Shown piece by piece: positions 1,064 to 63,003 of a stretch of DNA of 64,000 nucleotides (positions are counted from its first letter, which is position 1; every line of letters starts with the position of its first letter). The position numbers were made by a program, and so were the translations under genes. Source of the stretch: an uncultured Thermoleophilia bacterium (GTDB taxonomy: Bacteria > Actinomycetota > Thermoleophilia > UBA2241); NCBI GenBank assembly GCA_963741075.1, contig CAVUGS010000002.1, forward strand, positions 219,669 to 283,668, written 5' to 3'. Below the pieces are notes generated by a model, which was not told the DNA's origin, ran no database searches, and saw nothing but the letters and a program-made list of their open reading frames with translations.

Positions 1064-1196
1064 GCCGGTGCCCAGCGCTACCCACTGCTCGGTGGGCGTC
1101 TGGAGTGCGGGCAGTTCGGCCACGGGCGCGAGCCCAGGGCCCTGACCAGACGACTGGACGTCACGGGTCTCGGCTCGTGAGGGTGGAGGGAGCGAC

Positions 1197-12951: not shown

Positions 12952-14407
12952 CTATCCTTGCACGTCGCTCACGGCGGCCGGCGCAGCGTCGCCGCTCCCG
13001 CGGGTGGAGTGCCGGTAGAGCCACCAGCCTATGAGGAGCGAGACGATCGTGCCACCGCCGGTGATGAGCCAGAACACGCCCTTCGAGACGCCCTCGGCCG
13101 GGAAGTAGAAGAAGAGGAAGAGGGTGAGCACGATGCCGACCTCGCAGAGGATGGTGCAGATCCACGCGCCGGCCTTGCCGCCCGGGATCACGTAGGGTCG
13201 CGGCTGGTCGGGGTGCTTGCGGCGCAGCACGAGCAGCGCCGGGAACATCAGCAGGTACGGGATCAGGAACACGATCGACGAGAGCGCGAACAGGGTCCAG
13301 AAGACGCTGGTCTGGTTCGGGTCGAGCACGTAGGCCAGGATCGTGATCGCCGTGGCGATGATGCCCATGAGCACGAACGCGTAGTCGGGCGTGCCGAAGC
13401 GCTTGTTGACGTGGCCGAACACGCCCGGGGCCGTGTCGTCCAGGCCCGTGGCGCTGATCGTCTGGTTGGCGCCGATGGACCAGGTCACCATGTTGCCGAA
13501 GAACGTGAACAGCAGGGCGACGATGGCGATGTTGAACAGCCAGCTCGCGCCGCCGAGCACCTCGTCGAACATGAGCTTGAGGGCGTCGGTGATGCCGGTG
13601 ACGATGCTGACGTCCTCGGTCTTGATCGACGCGAGGATGCCGAACGTCGCGAACATGTACACGGCGAGGATCGCGGCGCCGGCGAGGATGATCATCTTGG
13701 GCACGTCGCGCTTCGGGTCCTTGATGTTCCCGCCGGCCGAGCTCATGAGCTCGAAGCCCATGTACGAGTAGATGATGATCGGCAGGAACGAGAGGCTGTC
13801 GCGTGTTCCAGGCGGGCAGCCACTGGTCGAGCGAGAAGGAGTTGGCGGCGCCGTTCTTGACGACGTAGGCGACGCCCAGCGCCCCCAGGCCGACGAGCAC
13901 GATGACCTTGAGCGCGGCGCTCAGGTTGGGCACGAACTTGCTCCACTCGAGCGGCAGGATGCCGACGAGCACGATCGCCCACACCATGGCGATGACGATC
14001 ACGGCCTCCCAGAACGGCGGCACGTCGACGCCCCAGGCGACCTCGATCGCGCCGATGAACAGCACGAACACGGAGGGCGCCCACAGGGCCACGTTGACCC
14101 AGTACATCCACGAGGTCACCGTGCCCCAGCCGGGGCCGAAGGCGGTCTTGACCCACACGTAGATGCCGCCCTCGTCCGGCCAGGCGCTGCCCAGCTCGGC
14201 GGTGACGAAGCCGTACGGGATGAAGAACAGCAGGCCGAGGATGATCCAGAAGCCGAGGCCCTGGACGCCCATCGCGGCCGAGCTGCCCACGGTGTCGGCG
14301 ACGAGGATCGCCGACACGCTGAACAGCACCATGCTGAACAGGCCGAACACCTTCGGCTTCTCTGCGAGCGCTCCCCCGGGCGCTCCTGGCTGGAGATCGG
14401 TAGCCAT
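12952..14407 (-). CDS. APC family permease, putative agmatine/putrescine antiporter (one indel)
   Basis: AELGSAWPDEGGIYVWV and GFEL; about 12 hydrophobic segments; lies inside the agmatine operon. Confidence 0.85.
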
Positions 14408-17388: not shown

Positions 17389-18183
17389 TCAGACGACGAT
17401 CTGCACGATCCCCAGCCGCTCCATCTCGTCGCGCACGTCCTTGTCCACGGCGTCGTCGACGATCACGGTGTCGATCTTGTCGAGGGTGCAGATGGCGACG
17501 TCGCCGATGACGCCGAACTTGCTGGCGTCGGCGAGCACGGCGATCTCGCCGCGCGTCTGGCGGACCATGGCCCGCTCCACGCCGGCGAGGCCGATGCTGG
17601 GCGTGGTGACGCCCTCCTCGAGGCTCACGCCGTCCGCGCCCAGGATGAAGCGGCTGGCGTGGAAGGTGGAGACGGCCTCGATGGCGAGCGGCCCCTCGAG
17701 CGTGTTGGACCGCGACCGGTAGGACCCGCCCAGGAGCACGACGTCGAGAGAGCTGCGCTGCGCCGTGGAGAGCGCGCCGACGTTGTGCGTGACGATCCTC
17801 GCCTTGAGCTGGGGGTCGACGTGGCTGAGCACCTGCGCCGCGGTGGTCCCCGAGCTCAGGAACACGGTCTCTCCCGGCTGGATCATCTCGGCCGCCGCCC
17901 TGGCGATGCGCCGCTTCTCCTCGGAGTGGGCGCGCACGTTGGTGGCGTAGAGCGGCTCTTCGAGCATGCGCCGCTTGAGGATCGCGCCCCCGTGCATGCG
18001 CGAGAGCAGGCCGGCCTGCTCGAGCTGCTCGAGGTCGCGGCGGATGGTCATCTCCGAGACGCCGAGCGTCTCGCTGAGCACCGAGACCCTGACCGCGCGT
18101 CGCTCCTCCAGGAGCTCGACGATGCGCGCCCGCCGCTCCGCGGGGATCATCTCGTGGATCTCGGATGGTACGTCTGGCGCCAT
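17389..18183 (-). CDS. DeoR/GlpR family regulator
   Basis: VSEMTIRRDLEQL...HGGA helix-turn-helix; sensor domain ADASKFG. Confidence 0.93.
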   Translation of the reverse strand: MAPDVPSEIHEMIPAERRARIVELLEERRAVRVSVLSETLGVSEMTIRRDLEQLEQAGLLSRMHGGAILKRRMLEEPLYATNVRAHSEEKRRIARAAAEMIQPGETVFLSSGTTAAQVLSHVDPQLKARIVTHNVGALSTAQRSSLDVVLLGGSYRSRSNTLEGPLAIEAVSTFHASRFILGADGVSLEEGVTTPSIGLAGVERAMVRQTRGEIAVLADASKFGVIGDVAICTLDKIDTVIVDDAVDKDVRDEMERLGIVQIVV

Positions 18184-18204
18184 GTCGTGCCCCTCGCGCG
18201 TCGC

Positions 18205-18270
18205 CGTTCATAGTGCTACAAGTTCGCACACAGTCGCACATATCATAGGTTCCGCCACGAGGCGGTTCAA
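18205..18270 (-). promoter_or_regulatory. deoR promoter with TGTGCGA direct repeats
   Basis: Minus strand TTGAAC-17-TATGAT followed by two TGTGCGA repeats 10 bp apart (18224-18240). Confidence 0.6.
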
Positions 18271-20507: not shown

Positions 20508-21596
20508 TCAGAAGTAGGCCTCGATGAACGCCATGAACCGCTCGCACTCCTCGGGCGTGCCGGGGGTGATGCGGAAGTAGCCTTCCTTGCCGTTGATCGG
20601 CTTGATGGTCTTGATGATGATCTGCTGCATGTCGTTGGCGGCCTGCACGATCTCGGCGCTGGTCTTGCCGGTCACGGAGGCGTCGACGAGCATGTAGTTG
20701 CCGTGCGCCTCGTAGGGCGTGAGGCCCTTGGCCGAGAGAGCGTCGGCGAACTTCTTCATCCAGTCGTTGTTGTAGACGACCTTGTCCTTGACCTCGCCCG
20801 TGTCCAGGATGGCCTCGGCCGCGGCGATCGCCATGAGGCTGAGGTTCCAGGGCAGGTACATGAGGTTGAACGCGTCCACGACGGTGGGGCTGCCGACCAT
20901 GTAGCCCATGCGGATGCCGGCGAGGCCGAACGCCTTGGAGAACGTGTGCGAGAGGAACACGTGCGGGTACTTCTTGACGAAGTCGACCTTGGCGTCGACC
21001 TGCGGATGGTAGTCGAGGTACGCCTCGTCGATGCACATCGGGATGCCGAGCTCGGCGAAGCGGGTGAGGTCGGCGTCGTCGATGAAGATGCCCGTCGGGT
21101 TGTTCGGGTTGATGATGAGGATCAGCTTGGTCTTGTCGTTGACGGCGGCGAGCATGCCCTCGACGTCGTACTGCAGGTCCTCGTCACGGAGCGGGATCTG
21201 CACCGTCTTGGCGTTGCAGTAGCCGGCGCGCGACGGGAACATCTCGAAGGTCGGGTTGGAGCAGAGGAACTCGTCGCCCGGCTGCAGGAAGATGCGCATC
21301 ATCGCGTCGATGGTCTCGGACGAGCCGTTGGCGAGGGCGATGTTCTCGGCCGCGAGGCCGTGCAGCTTGCCGAGCTTCTCGCGCAGGCGATAGGCGCGGT
21401 CCGGGTAGCGGTTGCCCTTCTTCGCCATGTCGGTGATCGCGGCGACCACGGCGTCCGACGGCGGCACCGGGTTCTCGTTGAGCATCATGCGGCCCAGCTC
21501 GGGGTGCGCCCACGCCTTGTCGAGCACGGCCGTGTTGTACTCGGGAGCCGTCCACACGTAGGGGTTGATGAGATCCTTGATGTCCGTCATGCCCAC
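20508..21596 (-). CDS. PLP-dependent class I/II aminotransferase (HisC-like)
   Basis: NENP, NGSSE, NPNNPTG, DEAY and [14 protein letters not shown]. Confidence 0.9.
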
Positions 21597-21635
21597 TGTC
21601 CTTTCGTCAATCAGGTGACCGTCAGGGCGCAGCTG

Positions 21636-22847
21636 TCAGGCCTTGCAGTTGCCCTTGAGGCAACCGTCGGCGAAGGCGACCATCTCGTTGGTGGCCTTGG
21701 AGAAGGCCTCGTGCGTCTTCACCAGCGCCGGATGCGTGTTGTACTCCTCGCGCGTGTAGCCGTCCTCGTCGTAGGCGCGGGCGAAGTACGGGATCTTGAG
21801 CAGCTTCTCCATCACGTCGGCCGGCGGGTCGACGTCGATCTGGTTCGGCTTGAACTTGATCTCGTTCGGCGCGCGGGAAGTTGATGACCTCGTCGATGAA
21901 GCTGCGGCGGGCAGGTGACGACGATGCTGGCGCCGGCCTTCTCCTCGAGGTGCCACAGGTGCTGGACGCCGTCGATCGTCGGGCCGAGGCGCAGCGAGCA
22001 GGAGAGCATCTTGCTCTGGTAGTTGCGCTCCTTGAGCGTGCGGTAGGCCTTCTTGAAGATCGCGAGCTCGGCGTAGCGGACGTCGGCCTCGCTGACCTCC
22101 AGGCCGACCTCGGCGCCGGCCTCACGCAGGCCGCCGAGGTCGCCGTAGCGGGCTTCCATGTGGGTGATGACCGAGCGCCACTTGCTGAGGTCCACGCCGT
22201 TGGCCTTGGCCTTCTCGAGGCCGCGCATGACCGACTTGGCGCAGTCGAGCAGCTGCGAGAGCACGAAGGTGAGGGTGTTGTTGGTGGCGATGCCGCGCGA
22301 GGTGAGCTCCTCGATGATCTCGTAGCCCTCGGCCGTGCCCGGTACCTTGACCATCACGTTGGGGTTCACGGCGTGGATCTCGAGCGCCTGGGCGAGCATG
22401 GCCTCGCCGTCGAACGCGCTGCGCGGGTCGACCTGGCCGGAGAGGAAGCCCTCCTTGTAGCCCGACGCCTCGAACAGCGGCAGGAACATGTCGGAGCCCT
22501 GCTTGACGACTTCCTTGTAGAGGAGCCAGAAGAGGCCCTCGGTGTCCAGGCCCTGGTTGTCGGCGAGGACCTTCTGCGCGACCTTCTCCCAGCGCGGCGG
22601 GTCGTCCTTGAACGCGGCGAGCGAGAGCGGCGGGTTGGTGGTGACGCCGCGGAAGAGCTGGCTCATCGGGTCGGCCAGTGTTGTACATGCGCGCGAACTG
22701 GCCCTTGAGGACGGGCTTGTCGGCGTCGTCGGCCTTGGCCAGCATCTTCTCGCACCAGTTGCCGAAGATGACCGGCGACGAGTCCCACCAGATCTCCATG
22801 CCGGGACTGACCGCTACCAGGTCTTCAAAGAGATTGGGGTCTTTCAT
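21636..22847 (-). CDS. Transaldolase family protein, divergent ~400 aa (indels)
   Basis: [25 protein letters not shown] and TNNTLTF. Confidence 0.85.
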
Positions 22848-23153: not shown

Positions 23154-24785
23154 TCAGATGCTGAGGTCGCGCTCGATCTCGGCGAGCTCTTCGGCCGAAC
23201 CCTGGACCTTCGGGCCCTTGAACCACTTGCGGGCCGAGACGGCGTACCAGAGGCCGGCGCCGCCGATCACGACGAGCACGGCGATCGGAGCGTAGTTGAA
23301 GGCCGTGAGCGTGAAGTCGGCGCTCCACGGCACTGCGGTGTTGTACTGCGGCAGCATCAGCAGGATGACGATGAAGACGACCCAGATGATCGCGATCCAG
23401 TTGATGATCGGGCCCCACGTCTTGCTGAGCACCCACGGGCCCGGCTGGAACGCGCTGGGGTTGATGCGGCGCAGGAACACCGGCGTCAGGTAGGCGATGT
23501 AGAGGCCGATGACGGCGATGGACGTGACCGCCGCGTACGCGGCGATGTTGTACAGGTACGGCAGCGCGAGGATGAACGCGCCGACGGCGCCGAACCAGGC
23601 GGTGCGCACGGGGACGTGGGCGCCCTTGCTGACGTGATGCCAGAAGTTCGAGAACGGCACCGCGCCGTCGCGCGAGAACGCGTAGACCATGCGCGAGTTC
23701 GCGGTGATCGACGACATGCCGCAGAAGAACTGCGCCACGATGACGACGAGGATGAGCAGCAGGCCGACGGCTTGCCGGCGGCGAAGATCGAAGATCGTCG
23801 CCCACGGCACGAGGTCGACAGCGATGGAGTCGTAGCCGGTGTACTCGATGCCGTTGATGGTCACCGGGAACGCATGCGGGATCGCGAAGCTCACGGCCGA
23901 CCAGCAGGATGAAGCCGGCGATCAGGGAGACCCAGATGGAGTTGACGATGCCCTTCGGGGCCGAGATGCGCGCGTGGATCGTCTCCTCGGAGACGTGCGC
24001 CGAGGCGTCGTAGCCGGTGAACGTGTACTGCGCGTTCAGGAGGCCGATGAGGAAGACGTAGAGCGGGATCGTGAAGCCGGAGAGGCCCTCGAACGCCTTC
24101 CAGCCCTCGCTGCCGAACAGGAAGCTGACCGACTGGTGGCTGCCCGACGACGGCGCCCAGAACAGCAGCACGAAGATGACCGCCACGCCGATGAGGTGCC
24201 AGTACACGGACACGTCGTTGAGCAGGGCGACGAGGCGGACGCTGAACGTGTTGAGCAGGCCCTGGAGGCCGAGCACCACGGCCAGGATGAGGATGGTGGC
24301 GTACGGCTCGAGCCACGTCTGCGCTGCCGGTCAGGATCGCCAGGAACGCCGAGATGGAGAAGGCGCAGCCGAAGCTGATGCCGGCGGTGACGGCGACCTG
24401 GCCGAGCAGGTTGAACCAGCCGGTGAACCAGGACCAGATCGGGGCGCTGTTGCCGGGAGCCAGCTTGGCGGCCCAGTAGTACAGGCCGCCGGCGGTCGGG
24501 AAGGACGGAGCAGATCTCGCCCATCGACATGCCGGCGAAGAGCACGAGCACGCCGACGAGCAGCCAGCCCCAGAGCATGACCGGCGGGCCGCCGTGCAGG
24601 AGGCCGTAGCCGTACAGCGTCAGGCAGCCCGAGAGGATGGAGATGATGGTGAAGGACACCGCGAAGTTCGAGAACTTGCTCATGCTCCGGTCGAGCTCCT
24701 GGGCGTAGCCCATCGCGTGGAGATCTTTGGTGTCCTGGTCGAGCTCTTCTCTGACCGGTGGTGAAGTGGACATGTCGTCTGGCAC
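23154..24785 (-). CDS. APC amino acid/polyamine permease (indels)
   Basis: MGYAQEL, NFAVSFTIISILSG, PTAGGLY and TGYDASAHVSEET. Confidence 0.9.
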
Positions 24786-51097: not shown

Positions 51098-51889
51098 GTG
51101 TCGCCAGAAGTCCCGGAAGTCCACGAGATGATCCCCGCGGAGCGACGCGCCCGCATCGTCGATCTGGTCAAGGAACGGCGAGCGGTCAGGGTGTCGTCGC
51201 TCAGCGAAGACCTGGGTGTCTCGGGGATGACCATCCGCAGAGACCTCGAGCGTCTCGAGGTCGAGGGCGTTCTCGTGCGCACGCACGGCGGCGCCGTCCT
51301 CAAGCGGCACATGTCGGAGGAGACGCTCTACGTGGAGCGCGAGACCGCGAGCGCCGAGGAGAAGCGCCGCATCGCCGAGCCGCCGCCGCCCTCATCGAGC
51401 CCGGGGAGACGGTGTTCCTCAGCTCGGGGACCACGGCGGCGCAGGTCATCCGGCACATCGACCCCGCGCTCGAGGCCCGCATCGTCACGCACAACGTCGG
51501 GCGCCGTCCAGGAGGCCCGCGGCCTGCGCGTCGAGGTCGTCCTCGTCGGCGGCCTGTACCGGCCGCGCTCCAACGCGGTCAGCGGGCCGCTCGCCCTGGA
51601 GCACATCGGCCGCTTCCACGCCGGCAAGATGCTCATCGGCGTGGACGGCTTCGACCTCGAGGAGGGTCTCACCACGCCCACCATGGGCATGGCCGGCGTG
51701 GAGCGCGCGATGATCGCGCAGACGCGCGGCGAGGTCATCGCGCTGGCCGACGCCTCCAAGATCGGCGTGGTGGCCGACGTCGTCATCTGCGGCCTGGACC
51801 AGGTGGACACGGTGATGGTCGACGACGGCGCCGACAAGAGCGTGCGCGACGAGATCGCGCGACTGGGACTGCGATGCATCGTCGTCTGA
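51098..51889 (+). CDS. DeoR/GlpR family regulator (compensating indels)
   Basis: VSGMTIRRDLERL...HGGA; close paralogue of 17389-18183. Confidence 0.92.
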   Translation: MSPEVPEVHEMIPAERRARIVDLVKERRAVRVSSLSEDLGVSGMTIRRDLERLEVEGVLVRTHGGAVLKRHMSEETLYVERETASAEEKRRIAEPPPPSSSPGRRCSSARGPRRRRSSGTSTPRSRPASSRTTSGAVQEARGLRVEVVLVGGLYRPRSNAVSGPLALEHIGRFHAGKMLIGVDGFDLEEGLTTPTMGMAGVERAMIAQTRGEVIALADASKIGVVADVVICGLDQVDTVMVDDGADKSVRDEIARLGLRCIVV

Positions 51890-51934
51890 GCGCGTCGGAG
51901 CTCGTGTCAGGAAACTCGGACGAAGCGAGGTCGA

Positions 51935-53125
51935 GTGGACGTAGGCAAGGCGAACGAGCTCTTCGAGATGGCGGTGCGCCTCGCGACCGACGCGGAGACG
52001 CTCCGCGACGCGCTGCAGGTCGAGTTCCTCAGCGGCCAGCTGGCCGAGGTGGTGGCCACCGACTACGACCTCGGCGAGGTGCTGCGCGTCGAGCAGATCT
52101 TGGGCGGCTACACCAACCTCAGCTTCGCCGTCGTCGTCGCGGACGCCCGAGGGCGAGCAGCGGTACTTCGTGCGCAAGTACAACCGCGTCAACACCGAGC
52201 GCGAGGTGCAGTTCGAGCACGCGCTCGTCAATCACATCAGCGGCAAGGGGTTCCACATCGCCGCCCAGGTGTACCCGAGCAAGGGCGGCGCGACCTACGT
52301 CACGCGCGAGGAGACCATCGCCGGCGAGCGCGTCACGCGGCTCTTCGCCGTCTACGAGATGCTCGAGGGCGAGGACAAGTACACCTGGATCAGCAACCGC
52401 CTGCACCGACACGGAGTTCGAGAACGGCGCGCGCGTGCTGGCCCGGTTCCACGCGCTCGCCCACGACTTCGACCCCGGCGACCTTGCCCGCGAGCAGCCG
52501 CCGATCATGGACTTCGTCGCGCCAGTTCCCGAGCATCTTCGAGGCCTACGCGGCCGCAGTCCCGGGGCACCGCGTTCGACGAGTACTACCTCGCCAAGCT
52601 GCCGAGCATCCTCGAGGCCGTCCGCAGCGGCGTGGCCATCGGGCGCCGACCTCGAGGGGATGCCGCGGGTCCCGGTGCACTGCGACTATCACCCCGGCAA
52701 CCTCAAGTGGGTCGACGAGCAGGGCGTCGGGCTGTTCGACTTCGACTGGTCCAAGCTCGACTACCGGCTCTTCGACGTCGCGCAGGGCATCGTCTACTTC
52801 TGCAGCTCGTGGGAGGGCCCGGACGACGGCGAGCGTGCGTCTCGACAAGGCGGCCATCTTCGTGCGCGCCTACCAGGACGAGGCGGCGCGCTTCGAGGTC
52901 CCCGGCCCGATGAGCGCCGAGGAGCTGGCCCTGCTGCCGCGCATGGTCGCCAACGCCAACCTGTACATCCTCAACTGGGACCTGATGGCCTACTACGAGG
53001 ACCCGAGCGTCGACGTCGTCGAGTACCTCACCTACCTCGAGTCACCAGGTCCGCTTCATGGAGTACATCGAGGTCACCATCTGCACGAGCTCGCCCACGA
53101 TCGCAGAGGAGGCATGACGGCATGA
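51935..53125 (+). CDS. APH-family phosphotransferase, homoserine kinase type II / hydroxylysine kinase-like (indels)
   Basis: GGYTN loop, HCDYHPGN catalytic loop and LFDFDW. Confidence 0.85.
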   Translation: MDVGKANELFEMAVRLATDAETLRDALQVEFLSGQLAEVVATDYDLGEVLRVEQILGGYTNLSFAVVVADARGRAAVLRAQVQPRQHRARGAVRARARQSHQRQGVPHRRPGVPEQGRRDLRHARGDHRRRARHAALRRLRDARGRGQVHLDQQPPAPTRSSRTARACWPGSTRSPTTSTPATLPASSRRSWTSSRQFPSIFEAYAAAVPGHRVRRVLPRQAAEHPRGRPQRRGHRAPTSRGCRGSRCTATITPATSSGSTSRASGCSTSTGPSSTTGSSTSRRASSTSAARGRARTTASVRLDKAAIFVRAYQDEAARFEVPGPMSAEELALLPRMVANANLYILNWDLMAYYEDPSVDVVEYLTYLESPGPLHGVHRGHHLHELAHDRRGGMTA

Positions 53126-54568
53126 GGTTCGTCGAACTGCTCACGGAGGCGGAGGTACGCCGCACGCACGAGGCCTCGCTCGAGGTCCTCGAGACGGTCG
53201 GCATCCTCGCCCACTTCGCGCCCGCGCGCGAGGTCTTCAAGAAGCACGGCTGCACGGTCGACGACGAGACGGGGCTCGTGCGGTTCCCGGCCGCCGTCGT
53301 CGAGAAGTACCGCAAGATGGCGCCGCCGAGCTTCACGTTCCGCGGCCGCGACCCGCAGTACGACCGCACCATCCCCGACGACGGCCCGATCGTCGTCACC
53401 GGCTCGTCGGCGCCCAACGTCGTCGACCCGGTCACCGGCGTGGAGCGCCGCGCGACGTCGGGCGACATCGCCAACATCGCCCACCTCATCAACGAACTGC
53501 CCGGGTTCGACGTGTTCAGCATCTCCACGCTGGCCGACGACGCGCCCGAGGGGCAGTTCAGCCTGAGCCGGTTCTACCCGGCGCTCAAGAACTGCCTCAA
53601 GCCCGTGCGCAGCAACACGCCGAACATGAACGACCTGCGCCAGGTCGTGGAGCTCGGCGAGCTCATCGCCGGCGGCAAGGAGGCCTACGCCGAGCGGCCG
53701 TGCATCAACCATCACTACTGCCCGATGGTGAGCCCGCTGACCATGGACGTGGACTCCACCGAGGCCGTCATGTGGCTCACCGAGCGCGGTCTGCCGGTGT
53801 ACACGACGGTGGTCCCCAACGCCGGCCTCACCTCGCCGATGACGCTCATGGGCACCCTCGTGGTCGGCAACGCCGAGTTCCTGGCGATCACCGTGTTCCA
53901 GCAGATGGTCAAGGAGGGCACGCCGGTCATCTACGCGAGCCTGCCGACCGTCGCCGACATGCGCACCGGCGCCTACGCGCCGGGCGCCATCGAGACGGGC
54001 ATCCTGCTCGCGGCGCAGGCGCAGCTGGCGCGCTTCTACGGCGTGCCGTCCGGCGGCTACATCGGCCTCACCAACGCGCACTCCAACGACGCGCAGGCCG
54101 GGCTTCGAGACCGGCATGAACACCGTGCTCGGCGTGTCGGCCGGGGCGACGCTGCTCAACATGGGCGGCCTCTTCAGCTCGCTGATGGCGTTCGACTTCG
54201 CCAAGGCGGTCGTCGACAACGAGATCGCGATCATGGACAAGCGCGCCTACCGCGGCCTCGAGTTCAGCGAGGAGAACCTCGCGCTCGACGAGATCGCCGC
54301 GGTGGGCCCCGGCGGCAGCTACATGGGCCGCAAGCACACCAAGGCACGCATGAAGACCACGGCCGTCCTGCCCAAGCTGGCCAACCGCGACATGCGCCAG
54401 CAGTGGGAAGACGCCGGCCGGCCGACGATCCACGACCGCGCCCTCGCCGAGGCGCGCCGCATCCTGGCGCAGCCCAACGAGGCGGTCTGGGACGCCGAGC
54501 TCGACGCGAAGATCAGAGAGCACTTCGCCGGCCTCGTCGCCGGCGACGCGACACCGCTGGAGGGCTGA
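53122..54568 (+). CDS. MttB superfamily methyltransferase, non-pyrrolysine (one indel)
   Basis: VSPLTMD, AGLTSPMTLMG, ADMRTG and YGVPSGGYIGLTNAH (Leu at the Pyl position). Confidence 0.9.
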
Positions 54569-54657
54569 GACCACGAGCTGACCCGAGTCGTACGCGCGAT
54601 GATGCGGCCGCCGCAGGGCGGCCGGCCAACGTTCAACCGGACCAAGAGGTGCATTCC

Positions 54658-55305
54658 ATGGCGGACACAGACCACTTCGACAAGCTCAAGCAGTCGATCA
54701 TCGACCAGGACGAGGACCAGGTCCTCGCCGCCGTCAACGCCGCGCTGGACGACGGCGTCGAGGCCAAGGCCATCATCGACCAGGGCCTGCTTCCGGGCCT
54801 CAACGTGATCGGCGAGCAGTTCGAGTGCGAGGACATCTTCCTCCCCGAGCTCATGCAGGCGGCCCTCGCCTTCCAGTCGGCGATGGTGATCCTCGAGCCG
54901 AAGATCAAGGAGCAGGGCGCGGCGGGCGAGAAGAAGGGCAAGATCGTCCTCGGCACCGTCAAGGGCGACCTCCACTCGATCGGCAAGAACATCCTCAAGC
55001 TCCTCTACGAGACCTCCGGCTTCGAGGTGTGGGACCTGGGCATCGACGTCGACCTCTTCCAGTTCGTCGACAAGGCCAAGGAAGTCGATGCCGACATCAT
55101 CGCCATGTCGGCGCTCCTCACCACCACGCTGGTGGGGCAGAGGGACGTCATCGACGCGCTCAAGGACCAGGGCCAGCGCGACAACTTCAAGGTCATCATC
55201 GGCGGCGGCGCGACCACCAAGGAGTGGGCCGACACCATCGGTGCCGACGGTTGGGCGGCCACGGCGTACGAGGCCGTGACTCTGTCCACCAAGCTGGTCT
55301 CCTGA
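54658..55305 (+). CDS. Methyltransferase cognate corrinoid protein (MtbC/MttC family)
   Basis: IFLPELM, GTVKGDLHSIGKNI (DxHxxG), MSALLTTT and IIGGG. Confidence 0.95.
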   Translation: MADTDHFDKLKQSIIDQDEDQVLAAVNAALDDGVEAKAIIDQGLLPGLNVIGEQFECEDIFLPELMQAALAFQSAMVILEPKIKEQGAAGEKKGKIVLGTVKGDLHSIGKNILKLLYETSGFEVWDLGIDVDLFQFVDKAKEVDADIIAMSALLTTTLVGQRDVIDALKDQGQRDNFKVIIGGGATTKEWADTIGADGWAATAYEAVTLSTKLVS

Positions 55306-55345
55306 GACCCCGCCCGACGACCACGACGACTGCGAGGAGCACGAC

Positions 55346-56729
55346 ATGATCGACCTTATCGAGGTCTTCGATCGCGCCGAGACCGGCCCGCTCACCTCTG
55401 AGACCGACTACTACATGAAGCGCTACGTCCCCAAGCTCACCGAGGTGATCGCGCGTCACAAGGTGAAGTGGGACAAAGCAGACCATCATCAACACCGACG
55501 ACACGCTCACCGACGGCGTGTTCCAGGCGGCCGTGGACCTCATCGCCGAGGCCGGCGCGTACTGCCCCGAGACCAACCGCGTGATGCAGTTCACGCGCGA
55601 CGAGATCGTCCTCGCCTGCGAGCAGGCGCCGAAGGCGGCCACGTTCGGCGAGGGCCGCGAGCGCAACGTCATGCGCGGCCGTCGCCCCGACACCACCGAC
55701 GACCGTCCGTGGGTGCACGTCGGTGGCGGCATCTACACGACCGACGAGCAGGTCTACATGGACACCGTCGAGAAGATGGCGTCCTTCAACATCGTCAACT
55801 CGGTGAGCGTCCCCTCGATCCTGCACCTGCGCGGCAAGGACTCGCGCGTGCGCTCGCCGCAGGAGATCCTCGCGGCCTGCAAGACCGTGCGCCTGGCGCG
55901 TGAGGGCATCCGCCGCTCCGGCCGCGCCGGCCTGCCGATCATCAACGGCATCTCCGCGGCCTCCCAGCCGGCGTCGATGTTCGCCGCGACCTATCCGGAC
56001 TTCGGGCTGCGCCCGAGCGACGGCTTCCTCATCGACTTCCTCTCCGAGATGGTCGTCGGGTACGAGGCGCTGCAGAAGGTCGCCTTCTACAACAGCATCA
56101 GCGCCAACATCGGCTCCACCTCCACGCCGCTCTTCGGCGGCTACGCGGGCGGCGCCGAGGGCGTCGCCGTGACGGCCACCGCGTACATGATCATGGGCAA
56201 CCTGATCTTCCGCGGCAGCTACCACTACAACGCTCCGCTGCACAGCAAGCTGCACCTCTCGTCCACCAAGCCGCTCATCTGGGCGATCGCCATGTCGAAC
56301 GCCGCCATCGGCCGCAACATGGGCTACCCGATGGTCAACCTGCCGTACCTCGGCGGCGGCTCGGGCACCAAGCAGTACCATTACGAAATGGCCTGCTATA
56401 TGCTCGCCGTCGTGACGTCTGGTGGAAACGTCTTCTCGGGTCACCCTGCCATGGCGGTCCAGTCGGACTCGCTGGTCCCGGACGACCACAAGTTCCATGC
56501 CGAGATCGGCCTCGCCGCCTCCAACCTCACGCGCGCCGAGGCCGAGCCGCTCGCCCAGAAGCTCTTCCCGCTCTTCGGCGACAAGCTCAAGGACCCGGAC
56601 AAGGGTCTGACGTTCCAGGAGGTCTACGACATGAAGACCAAGCGGATCGCCAACGCGGACTACCAGAAGGCCATGGACGAGGTCCGCGAGGAGCTCGCCG
56701 GCATGGGTCTCGAGGTCCCCGTTTCGTGA
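55346..56729 (+). CDS. Monomethylamine methyltransferase (MtmB) family protein, non-pyrrolysine (one indel)
   Basis: FDRAETGP, GAYCPETNRV, GRAGL, GGYAGGAEG and DPDKG..FQEVYD; no in-frame TAG. Confidence 0.85.
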
Positions 56730-56760
56730 GCTTGCGTCTCCCTCTACGCTCTTCGCGCGT

Positions 56761-56791
56761 CATCCCCGCCCGCCTCACGGCGGCGGGGATG
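56761..56791 (+). terminator. Hairpin after the MtmB-like gene
   Basis: CATCCCCGCC/GGCGGGGATG inverted repeat. Confidence 0.5.
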
Positions 56792-56884
56792 ACGCCTGTG
56801 GCAGCTCGGCGCGCGACCTGCGCCTTCTCATCAACGCCGACATCCGGACGGCCGGGGGGCCGCTCGTAGAGAAAGGCAGGACGC

Positions 56885-57815
56885 ATGGGAGAGCAGGCCC
56901 ACCTCACGCCTGAGGACATCATCGCCCGTATCGACGACTGGAAGGGCCACGACGTCCGCACCGAAGAGCTCGGCGGCGGCATCACCAACCACAACTACAT
57001 CGTGTGGGTGGACGGCGGCCCCGAGAACGGCGGCAAGAAGTACGTCATGCGCGTGCCCGGCATCGGCACCGACATGTTCATCGACCGGGACGTCGAGCGC
57101 GACTGCATGATCCAGGCCGCCAGGGCGGGCGTGGGGCCGGCGGTCGCCTACCAGATCGACCCCGAGGGCGCCCTCGTCATCGACTTCGTCGAGGGCGAGA
57201 TCCTGCACCCCGAGACGATGGCCGGGCATCCCGACCGCATCAGGCAGTCGGTCGAGACCGTCAAGGTGTTCCACCAGGACTGCGTCTTCAAGAGCGACAT
57301 CCATCTCTTCGACATGCTCCGCAAGTACACCAAGATCGCGCGCGACATCAACGCGCCGATGCCGGAGCGCCTCGAGGCGATGCTCGTGGCCATGGAAGAC
57401 GTGGAGACGGCGACCGCAGCGCAACCCCGTTCCGGCCGTCGCCTGCCACAACGACCTGCTCTCCGAGAACTTCATCATCGACGCCGACGACAAGATGTGG
57501 ATCATCGACTGGGAGTACGGCGGGATGACCGACCCGTACTTCGATCTCGGCGACTACGTGATGGAGCACCCGTTCACCCGGGACGAAGAGCGACTCATCA
57601 TCGAGACGTACTGCGGCGAGATGGACGAGAAGTACTTCGGCCGGCTCATGCTCTACAAGGCGCTCTCGGCCATCTGGTGGGGCGTGTGGGCGATGATCCA
57701 GCACACGGTGTCGCACATCGACTTCGACTACATGGAATGGGGTCTGGAGCGCATCGCACGCGCCGAGAAGGTCGTGGCCGACCCCGACTACCAGCAGTGG
57801 CTGGCGGCACAGTGA
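56885..57815 (+). CDS. Choline/ethanolamine kinase family protein (one indel)
   Basis: GGITNHNY, RVPG, IDRDVE, CHNDLLSENF and IIDWEYGGM. Confidence 0.9.
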
Positions 57816-57852
57816 CAAGGCGACCCGCGTACGCGGCGAAAGGAGGTACGGC

Positions 57853-58800
57853 GTGAGGGTAAGACTCTTCTTCGCCACGGACGTCCATGGCTCGGAGGTC
57901 TGTTGGCGCAAGTTCATCAACTCGGCCAAGCACTACGAGGCCGACGTCCTCATCCTGGGTGGAGACATGACCGGCAAGGCCATCGTGCCGATCACCCAGA
58001 CGGGTCCCGAGCAGTGGCGCTACCACATGCTCGACATCACGCACGAGCTCAACGGTGCGGACGACCTCGCCAAGGCCGAGCGTCTCATCAAGGACCACGG
58101 CTACTATCCCGTGGCTTTGACGCCCGAGGAGCGTGACGAGTACACGAACAACGAGGACAAGCTCGAGGAACTGTTCCACGCCCAGATGCGCAAGACGGTC
58201 GAGGAATGGGTCGAGTGGGCTGACGCGAGGCTCGAGGGCAGCGGCATCCAGTGCATCGTCTGCCCCGGCAACGACGACCGCCTGGACATCGACGATATCC
58301 TCGCGACCTCCAGGCACCTGCAGGTCGGCGAGGGCAACGTGCTCGACCTGCCCGAGGGGTACCAGCTCGCCTCGAGCGGCTGGACCAACCTCACGCCGTG
58401 GGACACCCCGCGCGAAGAAGACGAGCCCAAGCTCAAGGAGCGCATCATGGGCATCGTCAAGCAGGCGACCGTGCCGCCCGAGCGTCTGGTGCTCGGCCTG
58501 CACGCGCCGCCCTACGACACGCAGCTCGACGTGGCCCCGAAGATCGACTGGGAGACGCTCACCGTCCAGGGTCAGGATTCGGCGCACGTCGGTTCCACCG
58601 CCGTCAAGGAGGTGATCGAAGAGGTCCAGCCCATCCTGTCTCTGCACGGGCACATCCACGAGAGCCGGGCGGCCGTGCGCATCGGCCGTACCCTGGCCGT
58701 GAACCCCGGCAGCTCCTACGTGGAGGGCATGGTCGCGGGCGTCGTGGTCGACCTCGATGGCAAGAACAAGCTGAAGCGCTACAGGCTGACCTCCGGGTAA
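57853..58800 (+). CDS. Metallophosphoesterase (calcineurin-like, Icc-related)
   Basis: TDVHG, GGDMTGK, PGNDD, HAPP, GHIHE and NPGS. Confidence 0.92.
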   Translation: MRVRLFFATDVHGSEVCWRKFINSAKHYEADVLILGGDMTGKAIVPITQTGPEQWRYHMLDITHELNGADDLAKAERLIKDHGYYPVALTPEERDEYTNNEDKLEELFHAQMRKTVEEWVEWADARLEGSGIQCIVCPGNDDRLDIDDILATSRHLQVGEGNVLDLPEGYQLASSGWTNLTPWDTPREEDEPKLKERIMGIVKQATVPPERLVLGLHAPPYDTQLDVAPKIDWETLTVQGQDSAHVGSTAVKEVIEEVQPILSLHGHIHESRAAVRIGRTLAVNPGSSYVEGMVAGVVVDLDGKNKLKRYRLTSG

Positions 58801-58879
58801 GAGGGCACCCGGAGCAGCATGGAGGGCCCGACCGCGCGCCTGGCGGTCGGGTGACACGTGACAAAGGGGGACTTAGCTG

Positions 58880-60646
58880 ATGGCGACTGACGCTAGCAAG
58901 TCGGGCGAGCAGACACTGTTCGTCCGCAAGGCGAGTGGCCTGGTAAAGGGCTGGTCGTCGATGGACGGGTTCCGGTATTCGTTCTTCTCCGTGAACCTGT
59001 TCCTCGCGATCTGGTCGATTCGCGTACGCCACCTTCATCCCGGGTGGCAGTCTGTTCTGGTCGATCGTCATCACCGCGATCTTCATCGTCCTCGAGATCA
59101 TCGTGTACGCGGGTCTGATCTCGGCGATGCCGCGCGCGGGTGGCGACTACGTGTGGATGACACGCATCTTCAACAGCGCGATCGGCTTCATCATCGCCGC
59201 TGTAGGCTGGTGGTTCATCCTCTGGCTCTGGACCCCGATCTACGCCGACATGGGCGTCCAGACGACGGTCAAGCCGATCTTCCGCATCCTGGGTCTCAAC
59301 GGGGCGGCCGACTGGCTGAGCAGCCGCACAGGGCATCTTCGTCGCGTCGCTGGTGGTCATCGCCATCGCCTCGATCCTGGTCGCCGTCGGCATGAAGACC
59401 TACGCCAACTTCCAGAAGTGGGCCATGTGGATCGGCCTCGCCGGCGTGATCGTCTGCGGCATCCTGCTGCTCGTCACTTCCGGCGACTCGTTCAAGCAGA
59501 AGTTCAACGACGCCGCCAACAAGTACTACGGCGGCGACAAGGGCATGCTCAACCTCCAGAAGTACGAGACCGACGAGTCCGGCTACTTCGTCTACGACGA
59601 CACCGGTCTTGCCATCAAGACTGTGGAGGGTCGAGACGTACCCCGACGCGTTCACGCAGCTCGAGGCGGTCGGCTCTGGTACGGGCATGCCGACCTCGAC
59701 GTTCTCGGGCGGCCTGAGCTGGGCCACCTGGACGCTCATCCCGTTCATGATGTTCTGGATGGCGTGGCCGAACTGGGGGGCGACCCTCTACGGCGAGGTC
59801 CGAGGGGCCAAGGACTTCCGCAAGAACATCTACCAGATGCTCGGCGGGCTCCTGGTGCCGACGCTGCATCGCCCTCGCCTTCCTTGGGCTGATGACCTGG
59901 AAGGTGGGCTACCAGGCGTTCATGGGGATGATGGCGTCGTGGTGGTACTACTCCACCGCAGGGACGAACATCTCCCCGATCGGCGGCGACTACATCTCGC
60001 CGACGGCGATGATCTCCTGGATCGTGCCCAACGCGGCGTTCCAGGTCATCCTCATCGCCGCCATCTCGCTCCTGCTCTTCGGCTGGTTCGGTACGCTCTT
60101 CCTCTCGTCGACGCGCATGATCTTCGCCTCGGCGTTCGACCGCATCCTGCCTGAGCGCGCGGCCAAGGTGACCTCCGGCGGCGTGCCGACGGTCGCCCTG
60201 CTGCTCATGACGATCCCCTCGATCATCATGGCCGCTCTCTACGCCTACACGCCGATCGACGCCGAGAAGGGCGTGACCATCGTCAAGCTCTTCACCTACG
60301 ACGCGACGGTGGGCATCCTCATCATGTTCCTCGGCTCCGCGCTCGCCTTCATGATCATGCGCTGGCGCGCCCGGGGCATCTGGGAGAACAGCGCGCTGCC
60401 CAAGTCGGGCATCGCCGGCCTCCCGTGGATGTCGATCATCGCCGCCATCTACTCGGCGTTCCTGGTGTTCAACCTCTACCTGTTCGTCAAGGACGCCCTC
60501 TACGGCGTGAACAACAGCAAGTCCGCCATCTTCATGGGCATCCTGTACGTCGCCGCGCTCATCATCTGGGTCGATCGCGTGGTCGACCCGCAAGCGTCAG
60601 GGCATGGCGCTCGGAGACCGTCGCCAAGGAGATCCCGGTCGAGTAG
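58880..60646 (+). CDS. APC family permease (indels)
   Basis: LFVRKASGLVK, MPRAGGDYVW and RMIFASAFDRILP; about 12 TM segments. Confidence 0.88.
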
Positions 60647-60859
60647 TCGCCGCAGGCGGACTACCGTCGCGAGGGCACGAAGTGCCCGCCGAGCGACGTA
60701 AGCACGAGCGGCATCGATTGAAGTGACGTGGGGCGCCGGCGGCGGCCGTAGAGCCGCCGCCGGCGCCCTCACGAAGCGCACACGCAGAGCAGACAAGATC
60801 AGGCAAACCCCCGGGACGGCCTGGGACTTCTGATCAGCGACACAGCGGAGGCCGTATAG

Positions 60860-62263
60860 ATGAAGATAATGACGAGAATGGGTGACTCCTCGAACGTGGA
60901 GCTCACCAAAGACGAGCTGCGCACGGAGTTCATCACGGGCTCCGAAGAAGCGGCGAAGAAGGCCAAGATCCCCGTCCTCACCGAGAACGAGATCGACTAC
61001 CTGGTCGACATGTTCGCGGCGCCGACGCGCATCTGGGGCGTCCAGCGCGGCAACGAAGTCGTCATGACCAAGGACGGCTGCGTCAACGCGCTCAACTCCT
61101 CGCGCATGTCGAGCGGCGTGGTCGCGCCGGTCAACCGCGAGGTCGGCGTGCGCCTCTTCGAGTCGATGCTCGGCTTCGACTCCATGGAGATCTCGCACAA
61201 CGACTACTCGGTGAAGCCGCAGCGGTTCCTCAAGGCGCTCGAGATGCTCCACGTCGAGCTCCTCATGGAGACGACGATCTTCCCGCTGCTCTACGGGTTC
61301 ATGCCGAACCTCGGGCTGTACTACCGCCCGGACGGTTCGTTCGAGAACCCGAGCGACCTCATGCCGATCGGCAAGATCGACGAGGCCCGCAAGACGCAGG
61401 AAGAGGCGGGCAAGGCCTGTCTCGAGGACTGCATCGAGATGAGCGACTGCATGGTCGAGATGGGCGCCGACGGCATCGACTTCGACACCGTCGCGTCGAC
61501 GGGCGACGCGGAGTTCTACTCCGTGCTCAAGGCCTGCGACCACGTCGCCAACGAGACCGGCCTGCCGGTGGAGATCGGCATGTCGGCTGAGATGGTCCTG
61601 GGCTTCCACGGCCAGCTCGAGTACAACGGCAAGCGCCTCGCCGGCATGTGGCCGCACCAGCAGCTGCAGGTCTGCGAAGAGGCCGGCTGCGCGATCTTCG
61701 GCCCGGTGTCCAACACCAACACCAAGAAGACCGTGCCGTGGAACCTCGCCAAGGCGCTCACCTTCGTGAAGGCCTGCACCGAGATCGCCAAGATCCCCGT
61801 GCACCCGAACGTGGGCATGGGCGTCGGCGGCGTGCCGATGTTCGAGACCCCTGCCGTCGACGTCGTGACGCGCTGCAGCGCCGCCATGATCGAGATCGGC
61901 CACGCCGACGGGTTGTAGGTGGGTACTGGTGACCCCGCCGGCATGCACATGGCGCATCTGCTGGCCTCGTCGATGGGTGGGATCCGGGCCGCCGGAGATC
62001 TGGTGGCAAGGATGCAGCTCAGCAAGAAGATGAGGATCACGGAAGCCAAGCAGTACGTCGCCGACAAGCTCCACGTGACGCCGTTCGACCTGTCCGATCC
62101 GACCATGATGCGAGGTCTCAGGGAAGAGCTCGACATCGGGACGATCACGGGCGTGCCCGGCATCGCCAAGGGTCTTGCCGCCAAGGCGCGTATCAGCCAG
62201 CTGCTCGACATCCCCATCAACAGCGTCGAGCAGTTCAAGAACAAGACCGGACTGCACTACTGA
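60860..62263 (+). CDS. mtbB: Dimethylamine:corrinoid methyltransferase with in-frame amber (pyrrolysine) codon 353
   Basis: TRMGD N-terminus, [23 protein letters not shown], then ADGL-TAG(61916-61918)-VGTGDP; 467 aa if read through. Confidence 0.93.
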
Positions 62264-62269
62264 GTCTGT

Positions 62270-62320
62270 GAGGGGGCCGGCCGGCCGCGTCAGCGGCCGG
62301 CCGGCCCTCGTTCTTCTTTC
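62270..62320 (+). terminator. Intrinsic terminator after mtbB
   Basis: GGGCCGGCCGGCCGC/GCGGCCGGCCGGCCC hairpin followed by TTCTTCTTT. Confidence 0.75.
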
Positions 62321-62336
62321 CACCGCGAAGGAGACC

Positions 62337-63003
62337 GTGGACCAGGACCGCCGAGAGCTCGTGATGTTCGACTTCGACGGCGTCATCGTCGACTCGCTCG
62401 ACGTCTTCAGCGCCGCGTTCATCGACGCGTGTACCGCGGCCGGTGTGGAGGGCTTCGCTACGGTCGACGATCTGCTCGCGGTCATGGAGGACAACTTCTA
62501 CGCGGGCATGCGCGCGCGGGGCGTGGACGACGCGCGCGTCGCGGAAGTACTGCACCGGCTCGGCCAGGCGCTGATCCGCGCCCGGCACTGGCTCAAGCCG
62601 TTCCCGCTGGTGCCGCGAGGTGCTCGAGGACCTCGCCGACGCGCGCACCGTGGTGGTCGTGACCTCGAGCCCGGCAGAGGTCGTGGAGGGCTGGCTGCGC
62701 GTGCACGAGGTGCACGGCGTGACCGAGGTCGCCGGCGCCGAGACGGCGCGCAGCAAGGTCGAGAAGATCCACGCGCTCCTGGCCCGGTTCCCCGGCCAGG
62801 AGGTCTACTGGTACGTCGGCGACACCGCCGGCGACATCCGCGAGGCGCGCGAGGCCGGCGTGACGCCGCTCGGCGTCGCCTGGGGGTGGCACGAGCCGGA
62901 GATGCTGGTCGCGGCCGGCGCCGAGCGCATCGCCGCCGCGCCGGCCGAGCTGCTGACGATCATCGCGCCGGAGCTCGCCGGCGACTTCTTCGGCGCCGGC
63001 TGA
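62337..63003 (+). CDS. HAD-superfamily hydrolase/phosphatase (one indel)
   Basis: FDFDGVIVDS, VVTSS, YVGDTAGD and GVAWG. Confidence 0.9.

Follow-up and report, generated by a model that had tools for sequence, protein, structure and literature searches.

A conserved ten-gene operon of Thermoleophilia that joins two kinases to three families of corrinoid methyltransferases, with choline or a related amino-alcohol as a possible substrate

We have analysed a 64,000-nucleotide stretch of contig CAVUGS010000002.1 (hereafter the window) from the metagenome-assembled genome (MAG) GCA_963741075.1 of an uncultured Thermoleophilia bacterium. It holds a cluster of ten genes in which two kinases, two predicted phosphoesterases and a permease are combined with a single corrinoid protein and with methyltransferases of the MttB, MtmB and MtbB families, of which MtbB alone contains the amber codon of pyrrolysine (Pyl). 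The cluster is an intact operon that is conserved across one family, and it may pass methyl groups from choline or a related N-methylated amino-alcohol to one-carbon metabolism.

Results

Gene content of the cluster

The ten genes occupy positions 51125-63003 of the window and all lie on the + strand; each family named for this co-oriented cluster in an earlier, sequence-only reading of the same DNA is present, at about the coordinates given there. Families were assigned using Pfam on the window frames and Pfam and NCBIfam on clean orthologs from loci of relatives (L017 and L014), and coordinates were obtained using tblastn. The genes are as follows.

51125..51889, + strand: DeoR/GlpR-family regulator (HTH_DeoR 59.8 bits, DeoRC 76.8 bits; tblastn 51125-51886)
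51935..53125, + strand: APH-family kinase, 390 aa in relatives (tblastn pieces 51935-53098; several frame errors)
53122..54568, + strand: non-Pyl MttB-superfamily methyltransferase, 481 aa (PF06253 186.7 bits in the window, 276.3 bits in L017; extra base at ~54097)
54649..55305, + strand: corrinoid (B12-binding) carrier protein (PF02607 and PF02310, B12-binding_2 and B12-binding)
55346..56729, + strand: non-Pyl MtmB-family methyltransferase, 460 aa (PF05369 193 bits in the window, 228 bits in L017; extra base at ~55479)
56885..57815, + strand: LicA-type choline/ethanolamine kinase (ChoK), 309 aa (Choline_kinase; extra base at ~57414)
57853..58800, + strand: metallophosphoesterase, 315 aa (PF00149 22.7 bits in the window, 24.7 bits in L017; cut-off 21.5)
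58877..60650, 3' end approximate, + strand: APC-superfamily permease, 582 aa in relatives (tblastn pieces 58877-60572; at least four frame errors)
60860..62263, + strand: MtbB-family methyltransferase, 467 aa, with an in-frame TAG at 61916-61918 (Dimeth_Pyl 419.5 bits; translation with TAG read as pyrrolysine, O)
62361..63003, + strand: HAD-IA phosphatase-like hydrolase, 213 aa (tblastn 62361-63000; frame error at ~62612)

The regulator gene has two compensating frame errors at ~51340-51430; its clean ortholog (L017:5562-6326) scores 135.1 bits on DeoRC, and the top NCBIfam model, GlpR, stays below its cut-off at 172.8 bits. The APH ortholog (L017:6373-7545) scores 88.2 bits on PF01636, and its highest-scoring NCBIfam model, homoserine kinase, gives 62.5 bits and misses the cut-off of 271 by far. 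The corrinoid protein, the only one within the cluster, scores 225 bits on MtgC and 198 bits on MtbC of NCBIfam, both below cut-off. For ChoK, the broken window copy reaches 22.6 bits on Choline_kinase, which is below the cut-off, and a clean ortholog (L014:11359-12288) reaches 97.9 bits on PF01633 against a cut-off of 29. The permease gives AA_permease matches in the window frames and 48.6 bits on AA_permease_2 for its L017 ortholog; the L017 ortholog of the HAD hydrolase scores 52.4 bits on HAD_2.

The G+C content is 0.645-0.684 in the cluster (window 52001-62000) versus 0.70-0.76 in the flanks. The type of APH kinase encoded here was found in one of 401 Actinomycetota genomes, namely the source genome, and in the phylum of genome G670 only G670 itself carried it (1/401 genomes). 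Horizontal acquisition of the cluster is possible in view of its lower G+C and of the failure to find this kinase type in the 400 other genomes of Actinomycetota.

Frame switches in the window

The source MAG amounts to 3.33 Mb in 29 contigs with ~70% G+C and a completeness of 66.9%. Under translation table 11, seven of the ten genes (DeoR, APH, MttB, MtmB, ChoK, permease and HAD) switch frame in the window, and an artificial frame of 1422 aa spans four cluster genes. Such switches would suit a decaying set of pseudogenes, a reading whose probability we consider negligible and which was rejected on three grounds. First, rpoB of the same genome (C3:201864-205350) is equally broken, into seven frame pieces without stops. 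Second, orthologs of the cluster genes with 88-100% identity are intact in other MAGs. Third, Illumina contigs from four public runs (two DNA and two RNA-library runs, from close relatives) omit one base relative to the window at 54097, 55479, 57414, 59018, 59631 and ~59863-59867, and these are the sites of the window's frame switches. Contig C24 of the same MAG, moreover, carries an intact APH gene. The frame switches are thus assembly indels rather than decay, and frameshift or pseudogene calls in the window should be distrusted because single-base indels occur throughout the assembly.

The APH gene on C24 was considered as a paralog and rejected, as C24 runs colinear with C2:242585-272814, on the contig of the window, at 82-96% identity and represents a second version of it. 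Its positions 1-21436 match window ~22917-53146 and end exactly at the APH/MttB border. C24 is probably a co-binned strain or haplotig, and two near-equal, full-length URO-D-family matches in the genome (contigs C17 and C21) may likewise point to one.

Conservation in other genomes

A search with the MtmB homolog against one genome per prokaryote species returned 61 loci; the counts that follow refer to the window plus 59 of these, leaving out L070 (a distant paralog) and L071 (a 50-residue fragment). The 59 loci have best-segment identities of 84-99%, and their titles name Thermoleophilia or unclassified Actinomycetota MAGs; two titles name Coriobacteriia and one Deltaproteobacteria. Any MtmB-family match was found in 56 of 301 sampled genomes of the class. 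Matches of at least 86% identity occur in the window's own family only, within which a match of some kind was found in 44 of 55 genomes.

In loci with enough flank, the corrinoid protein (52/52), the MttB homolog (49/49) and the DeoR regulator (47/47) are invariably present; ChoK is found in 41/52, and the APH kinase in 42/48, where it abuts the MttB homolog. The sequence-only reading depended upon kinases standing beside the methyltransferases in other genomes, and they do so. All 44 loci with both flanks have at least one kinase: 32 have both, seven have APH only, five have ChoK only and none has neither. As either kinase can be absent and never both, this distribution suggests that the two do the same job and are interchangeable rather than step-specific. 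The two proteins are only remotely alike (BLASTP E 0.017).

The 3' half of the cluster is more variable. Among 31 loci that extend 9 kb or more to either side, the permease is present in 29, the metallophosphoesterase in 28, MtbB in 25 and the HAD hydrolase, which is a peripheral member, in 16. MtbB is absent within 10 kb in six of the 31; in four of those six, the phosphoesterase and permease lie near the locus end and so MtbB may lie just beyond. The metallophosphoesterase-permease-MtbB segment keeps its internal order even when inverted, as it is in seven loci. A polyphosphate kinase 2 gene lies within a few kb 3' of the cluster in many loci (L017:17355-18584; C2 ~284257-285172, just past the window) and may be a mere neighbour or a nucleotide source for the kinases.

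Contigs of two metatranscriptome libraries (one study, relatives of the source organism) cover 29/30 and 30/30 bins of the stretch. All genes from that of the corrinoid protein through MtbB are covered, and summed depth is higher there than at the ends; the low depth at the HAD gene (62.3-63.1 kb) was not used as a sign of silence. The operon is apparently expressed, as far as contigs of relatives, with possible DNA carry-over, can suggest.

The MttB homolog and the APH kinase

The MttB homolog of L017 (7550-8995) is an open frame of 481 aa with no in-frame stop that spans positions 30-491 of the 500 in the PF06253 profile, and the TAG codons of five Pyl-MttB paralogs of the source genome align at about its Leu316. 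Its closest solved structure is the glycine betaine methyltransferase MtgB (9yce/2qne, E 1.6e-65), and it matches none of the curated substrate-specific models of NCBIfam. In MtgB, Arg312 and His348 are described as binding the acid group of the substrate, Arg312 being reported as conserved in MthB, MtcB, MtpB and MtyB and His348 less so (PMC13080624). A phmmer alignment to 9yce/2qne places Gly311 of the MttB homolog opposite Arg312 and an Asn opposite His348, and in tblastn alignments none of this genome's paralogs has Arg at the former spot. The missing Arg speaks against orthology to MthB or, alternatively, against the same mode of binding for an acidic substrate.

The nearest described arrangement is that of Eubacterium limosum, in which the phosphotransferase MthK produces phosphocholine, the sole substrate of the non-Pyl MttB member MthB; MthB methylates MthC, and MthA moves the methyl group to tetrahydrofolate (Jiang, Kountz, Zhang and Krzycki, J Biol Chem 2025, PMC12155760). 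According to the main text of that paper, mthK and mthB are co-localised in Clostridia, Negativicutes and delta-proteobacteria. Judged by this published description, the two systems have in common a gene for an APH-type phosphotransferase beside genes for a non-Pyl MttB member and a corrinoid protein, a logic, proposed for the present cluster, of phosphorylating an amino-alcohol and then demethylating it onto the corrinoid, and a host with a Wood-Ljungdahl pathway. They differ in that the present cluster lacks an MthA-type gene and has a Gly in place of the Arg reported for MthB, and in that its kinase gene is co-directional with and nearly abuts that of the MttB homolog, with the APH stop 4 nt upstream of the MttB-like start in L017, whereas it is divergent in E. 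limosum. The non-Pyl MtmB, LicA-type kinase, metallophosphoesterase, Pyl-MtbB and HAD hydrolase are additional here, the permease is of APC rather than EamA type, and the host phylum is Actinomycetota. As described, E. limosum stops at dimethylaminoethanol.

By analogy, the APH kinase is a candidate choline kinase of the MthK kind. Its relatives among the matches listed are close ones only, all at least 59% identical, and ESM Atlas leads place look-alike kinase clusters most often in Actinomycetota, Myxococcota and Thermodesulfobacteriota. A tblastn search of plasmid sequences, aimed at reaching MthK, MthB and MtqB, gave no match.

The non-Pyl MtmB homolog

The MtmB homolog covers PF05369 over its full length (profile 1-450 of 450; 228 bits in L017). 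It aligns with Methanosarcina barkeri MtmB (1l2q) at E 3e-35 and ~30% identity, with Pyl202 opposite an Ile. This residue is Ile in 58 of 59 copies and Gly in the other, and no copy has a stop.

The sequence-only reading assigned this family to the monomethyl step, which does not follow. Two quaternary amines, tetramethylammonium and choline, are demethylated by MtqB of Methanococcoides methylutens Q3c, which likewise belongs to the non-Pyl MtmB homologs (Kashyap et al., Front Microbiol 2026, PMC13044021). The same report describes MtqB as using unphosphorylated choline, as preferring choline, and as the first non-Pyl MtmB for which a function was shown. Compared by that description, MtqB/MtqC resembles the present cluster in having a non-Pyl PF05369 gene beside that of a corrinoid protein, and the link of MtqB to choline-type quaternary amines would be a further likeness to the MtmB homolog. 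The systems differ in that the host is a bacterium here, the methyl acceptor is presumably tetrahydrofolate and not coenzyme M, and the MtmB homolog is encoded between the MttB homolog and the choline kinase.

ESM Atlas leads indicate that MtmB-like clusters are commonest in Spirochaetota, Nitrososphaerota and Bathyarchaeota. An Anaerolineales MAG (L070:5972-21150, on a contig of 47% G+C) encodes four non-Pyl MtmB paralogs and two corrinoid proteins within 21 kb; these paralogs are 27-32% identical to that of the window and form a separate expansion of the non-Pyl MtmB family.

MtbB and pyrrolysine

The cluster MtbB has a single TAG, at codon 353 of a 467-aa readthrough product. In all 33 copies compared (82-99% identity over ~467 aa), TAG occupies this codon in the alignment and no other stop occurs. 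With no in-frame stop in the MttB and MtmB homologs, the earlier proposal that only one step uses pyrrolysine is borne out by the location of the amber codon. The source genome has the means to decode it: tRNA-Pyl (CUA) lies at C19:227364-227436, and PylSc (323 bits), PylSn (125.7 bits) and PylC (343.1 bits) all score above their cut-offs. All eight MtbB paralogs of the genome carry TAG, and a canonical Pyl set of five Pyl-MttB, seven further Pyl-MtbB and one Pyl-MtmB is encoded elsewhere (contigs C5, C9, C12, C13 and C26), where these enzymes sit with their own corrinoid proteins. The canonical MtmB has its TAG at C13:20111, in the context GMGL*GPETT.

This genome is an unusually heavy user of pyrrolysine for a bacterium. 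Several of its MtbB genes adjoin MttB-family genes, which hints that Pyl-MtbB paralogs may generally process the products of quaternary-amine demethylation. A TAG at 1737-1739 in an MttB paralog of the window (1146-2612) was examined as a conserved Pyl site and rejected, since none of eight orthologs (81-92% identity) has a stop there; this non-canonical position reflects a strain-specific change or an assembly error. Actinobacteriota MAGs that express Pyl-type mttB and mtbB have been described from a permafrost mire (Ellenbogen et al. 2023, PMC10805028).

The canonical mttBC/mtbBC/mtmBC systems of Methanosarcina and some bacteria share with this organism the three methyltransferase families, the amber position of MtbB, the pylT/pylSn/pylSc/pylC genes and RamA-type activases. 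In contrast to those systems, pyrrolysine is restricted to MtbB in the cluster, one corrinoid protein is present rather than one per enzyme, and genes for kinases and phosphoesterases stand among those of the methyltransferases.

In the tree, the MtbB copies linked to the cluster group together (support 100/99), separate from six paralogs of the source genome, and this group stays beside the same genes across several genera. To judge from the tree, such a separate group would permit a changed substrate without showing one. The PDB search found no solved structure related to MtbB. The cluster MtbB scores 501.8 bits on TIGR02368, the NCBI equivalog model for dimethylamine (cut-off 369.1), and the copy on C13, which has the canonical Pyl-MtmB and a RACo activase in its vicinity, scores higher (561.6 bits). 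Since that model is passed, and since canonical Pyl enzymes are also present in the genome, action of the cluster MtbB on free dimethylamine is possible.

This leads to an alternative in which the operon is a toolbox and not a linear pathway: three methyltransferases would act on three unrelated substrates and share a corrinoid carrier and a regulator, for example, phosphocholine or a different quaternary amine for the MttB homolog, tetramethylammonium or choline for the MtmB homolog, and free dimethylamine for MtbB. We consider this somewhat unlikely. Apart from the MtbB score, it is favored by the separable phosphoesterase-permease-MtbB segment, with its seven inversions and the six of 31 loci lacking MtbB within 10 kb, by a generalist genome in which the MttB homolog matches ~26 places (five with TAG at the Pyl position), the corrinoid protein 16 places and MtbB eight genes, and by the activity of MtqB on quaternary amines (PMC13044021). 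However, free methylamines need no kinase, the canonical Pyl-MttB, Pyl-MtbB and Pyl-MtmB occur elsewhere with corrinoid proteins of their own, the MtbB of the cluster belongs to an ortholog group of its own that has the same neighbors across genera, and one carrier serves three enzymes.

LicA-type kinase, phosphoesterases and permease

The structure matches of ChoK are PDB 3dxq (E 2.8e-39) and the Streptococcus pneumoniae choline kinase 4r77 (E 3.3e-23). Its translation contains HNDLLSEN and IIDWEYGG, which we take to be the Brenner and choline-kinase motifs. As in the lic genes of Streptococcus and Haemophilus (LicA kinase, LicB permease), the gene for a LicA-family kinase is near one for a permease; in contrast to the lic genes, the cluster showed no gene for a cytidylyltransferase or phosphocholine transferase, its permease belongs to the APC type and the neighbors are catabolic methyltransferases. 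The AlphaFold2 (AF2) model of the metallophosphoesterase has a pLDDT of 88.3 and its nearest folds are the uncharacterised aq_1956 and TT1561, followed by MPPED2; a PDB sequence search gave weak matches.

A paralogous module elsewhere in the genome (C29:81060-87959, equal to L073:3060-9959) encodes a DeoR regulator, a ChoK with 50% identity, a protein of 274 aa that matches no Pfam family, a metallophosphoesterase with 38% identity, an APC permease and a class-III aminotransferase, and has no methyltransferase. A second ChoK-X-phosphoesterase-permease unit of this type is inserted in the main cluster in some loci, including L030 and L058. The class-III aminotransferase was considered as a phospho-lyase and rejected, as its best PDB relatives are acetylornithine (ArgD) and putrescine aminotransferases. 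A second DeoR paralog in the window (17392-18207) is 64% identical to the cluster regulator and is surrounded by APC permeases (12955-13920 and 23157-23921), a class-I/II aminotransferase (20511-21635) and a transaldolase-family gene (21815-22813).

The kinases and phosphoesterases could instead serve the product. Free choline would then lose methyl groups in the manner known from Methanococcoides, and the amino-alcohol left over would be phosphorylated so that it can be assimilated or broken down; kinase, phosphoesterase and permease would form an independent unit for amino-alcohol salvage. In keeping with this are the C29 module (81-88 kb), in which a DeoR-ChoK-X-metallophosphoesterase-permease set stands beside an aminotransferase with no methyltransferase, the second copies in L030 and L058, the lack of the acid-binding Arg in the MttB homolog, and the use of unphosphorylated choline by MtqB (PMC13044021). 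We regard a product-side role as distinctly unlikely, given that the APH stop precedes the MttB-homolog start by 4 nt, as for a coupled pair, and that the sole biochemical precedent of a kinase beside an MttB homolog is one of substrate activation (PMC12155760). The likeness of the C29 aminotransferase to ArgD and putrescine aminotransferases, rather than to a phospho-lyase, also argues against it.

A further alternative keeps the logic of kinase and corrinoid and replaces choline by another hydroxylated, methylated amine, such as a hydroxy-quaternary amine or an N-methyl amino-polyol. Among curated models, the APH kinase comes closest to homoserine kinase type II, with a score far short of the cut-off, the MttB homolog fits no curated substrate-specific model, and the permease and metallophosphoesterase are uninformative. 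Effectors of DeoR-family regulators are usually phosphorylated metabolites and often sugar phosphates, the latter in keeping with this alternative. We nevertheless hold this alternative to be very unlikely, as the second kinase is a clear member of the LicA/choline-ethanolamine kinase family and choline is preferred by MtqB, the one non-Pyl MtmB homolog to have been characterised (PMC13044021).

Discussion

We favor, with a probability of about 0.5, the explanation that the cluster is an operon of an anaerobic, Pyl-decoding member of the Thermoleophilia with a Wood-Ljungdahl pathway, and that it channels methyl groups from choline or a related N-methylated amino-alcohol into one-carbon metabolism. 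In the proposed mechanism, the APC permease would import the amine, and the APH-type or LicA-type kinase would phosphorylate it, for which MthK is the precedent. The quaternary (phospho)choline would donate its first methyl group to the shared Co(I)-corrinoid protein via the non-Pyl MttB homolog, the MtmB homolog or both, the precedents being MthB, with phosphocholine, and MtqB, with choline. The amine so produced, tertiary or secondary, would need pyrrolysine for activation because it is not quaternary, and may then be demethylated further by the Pyl-MtbB paralog, a step suggested by chemistry and gene linkage. The metallophosphoesterase and HAD hydrolase would remove or recycle the phosphate, and the DeoR repressor may sense a phosphorylated intermediate, in line with the usual effectors of its family. 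The methyl group of the methyl-corrinoid would pass to tetrahydrofolate via a methyltransferase encoded elsewhere. The order of tri-, di- and monomethyl steps is inferred.

The sequence-only reading had looked outside the cluster for a RamA activase, a corrinoid:tetrahydrofolate methyltransferase and Wood-Ljungdahl genes. The genome was found to encode RACo/RamA-type activases at three places, pterin-binding methyltransferase candidates, URO-D-type methyltransferases and a CdhC/ACS acetyl-CoA synthase. Together with its many methyltransferase and corrinoid-protein genes, these mark the organism as specialised in methyl groups.

A stricter form of the choline explanation places full demethylation at the phospho-ester level, from phosphocholine through phospho-dimethylaminoethanol and phospho-monomethylaminoethanol to phosphoethanolamine, using one corrinoid carrier and three non-homologous methyltransferase families, with Pyl-MtbB acting on a substituted amine instead of dimethylamine. 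In this complete form the route is unlikely.

Several observations weigh against choline as the substrate and against the pathway as drawn. The MttB homolog lacks both acid-binding residues of MtgB, and the MtbB passes the dimethylamine equivalog model. The cluster encodes neither a methylcorrinoid:tetrahydrofolate methyltransferase nor an activase, and the HAD hydrolase is present in only 16 of the 31 full-flank loci. The fold of the metallophosphoesterase was rejected as a guide to its substrate, its nearest neighbors being uncharacterised proteins and generic phosphodiesterases or nucleases, and the permease has no PDB sequence match and no informative relatives in PDB or NCBIfam. EutB was not found in the genome, which at 67% completeness is not evidence of absence, and the genome yielded no clear phosphoethanolamine lyase and no route for the C2 product.

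The interpretation offered in the sequence-only reading is thus retained in part. Its gene content, the co-occurrence of kinases and methyltransferases, and the amber codon confined to MtbB stand; the monomethyl role of the MtmB family and the statement that no pathway of this make-up had been described do not. The core idea is in print, as MthK/MthB in 2025 (PMC12155760) and as MtqB in 2026 (PMC13044021), and in the literature searched, 'choline kinase', 'MttB' and 'corrinoid' occur together only in the former. No paper with the present combination of genes was found, although Tables S4 and S5 of PMC12155760, which list genomes with co-localised mthK and mthB, may include such Actinomycetota. 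As far as the literature was searched, what is new is that both schemes are combined here with a Pyl-MtbB, a further kinase and a pair of phosphoesterases, and that the host is an actinobacterium.

Conclusions

Choline and related compounds occur commonly in plant litter and in peat, where bacterial methylotrophy shapes the supply of substrates to methanogens. The operon is one conserved gene set that bears on how choline is demethylated past dimethylaminoethanol without oxygen, on the roles of most non-Pyl MtmB homologs and on why some bacteria keep many Pyl-MtbB paralogs. It would extend the kinase-coupled scheme of E. limosum to Actinomycetota of soil and peat. The phospho-ester route, if true, would run in the opposite direction to that of plant phosphoethanolamine N-methyltransferase, and a pyrrolysine enzyme would for the first time have a substrate other than a methylamine; the eight Pyl-MtbB paralogs found in such genomes would then mark a hidden family that acts on the products of quaternary-amine demethylation.

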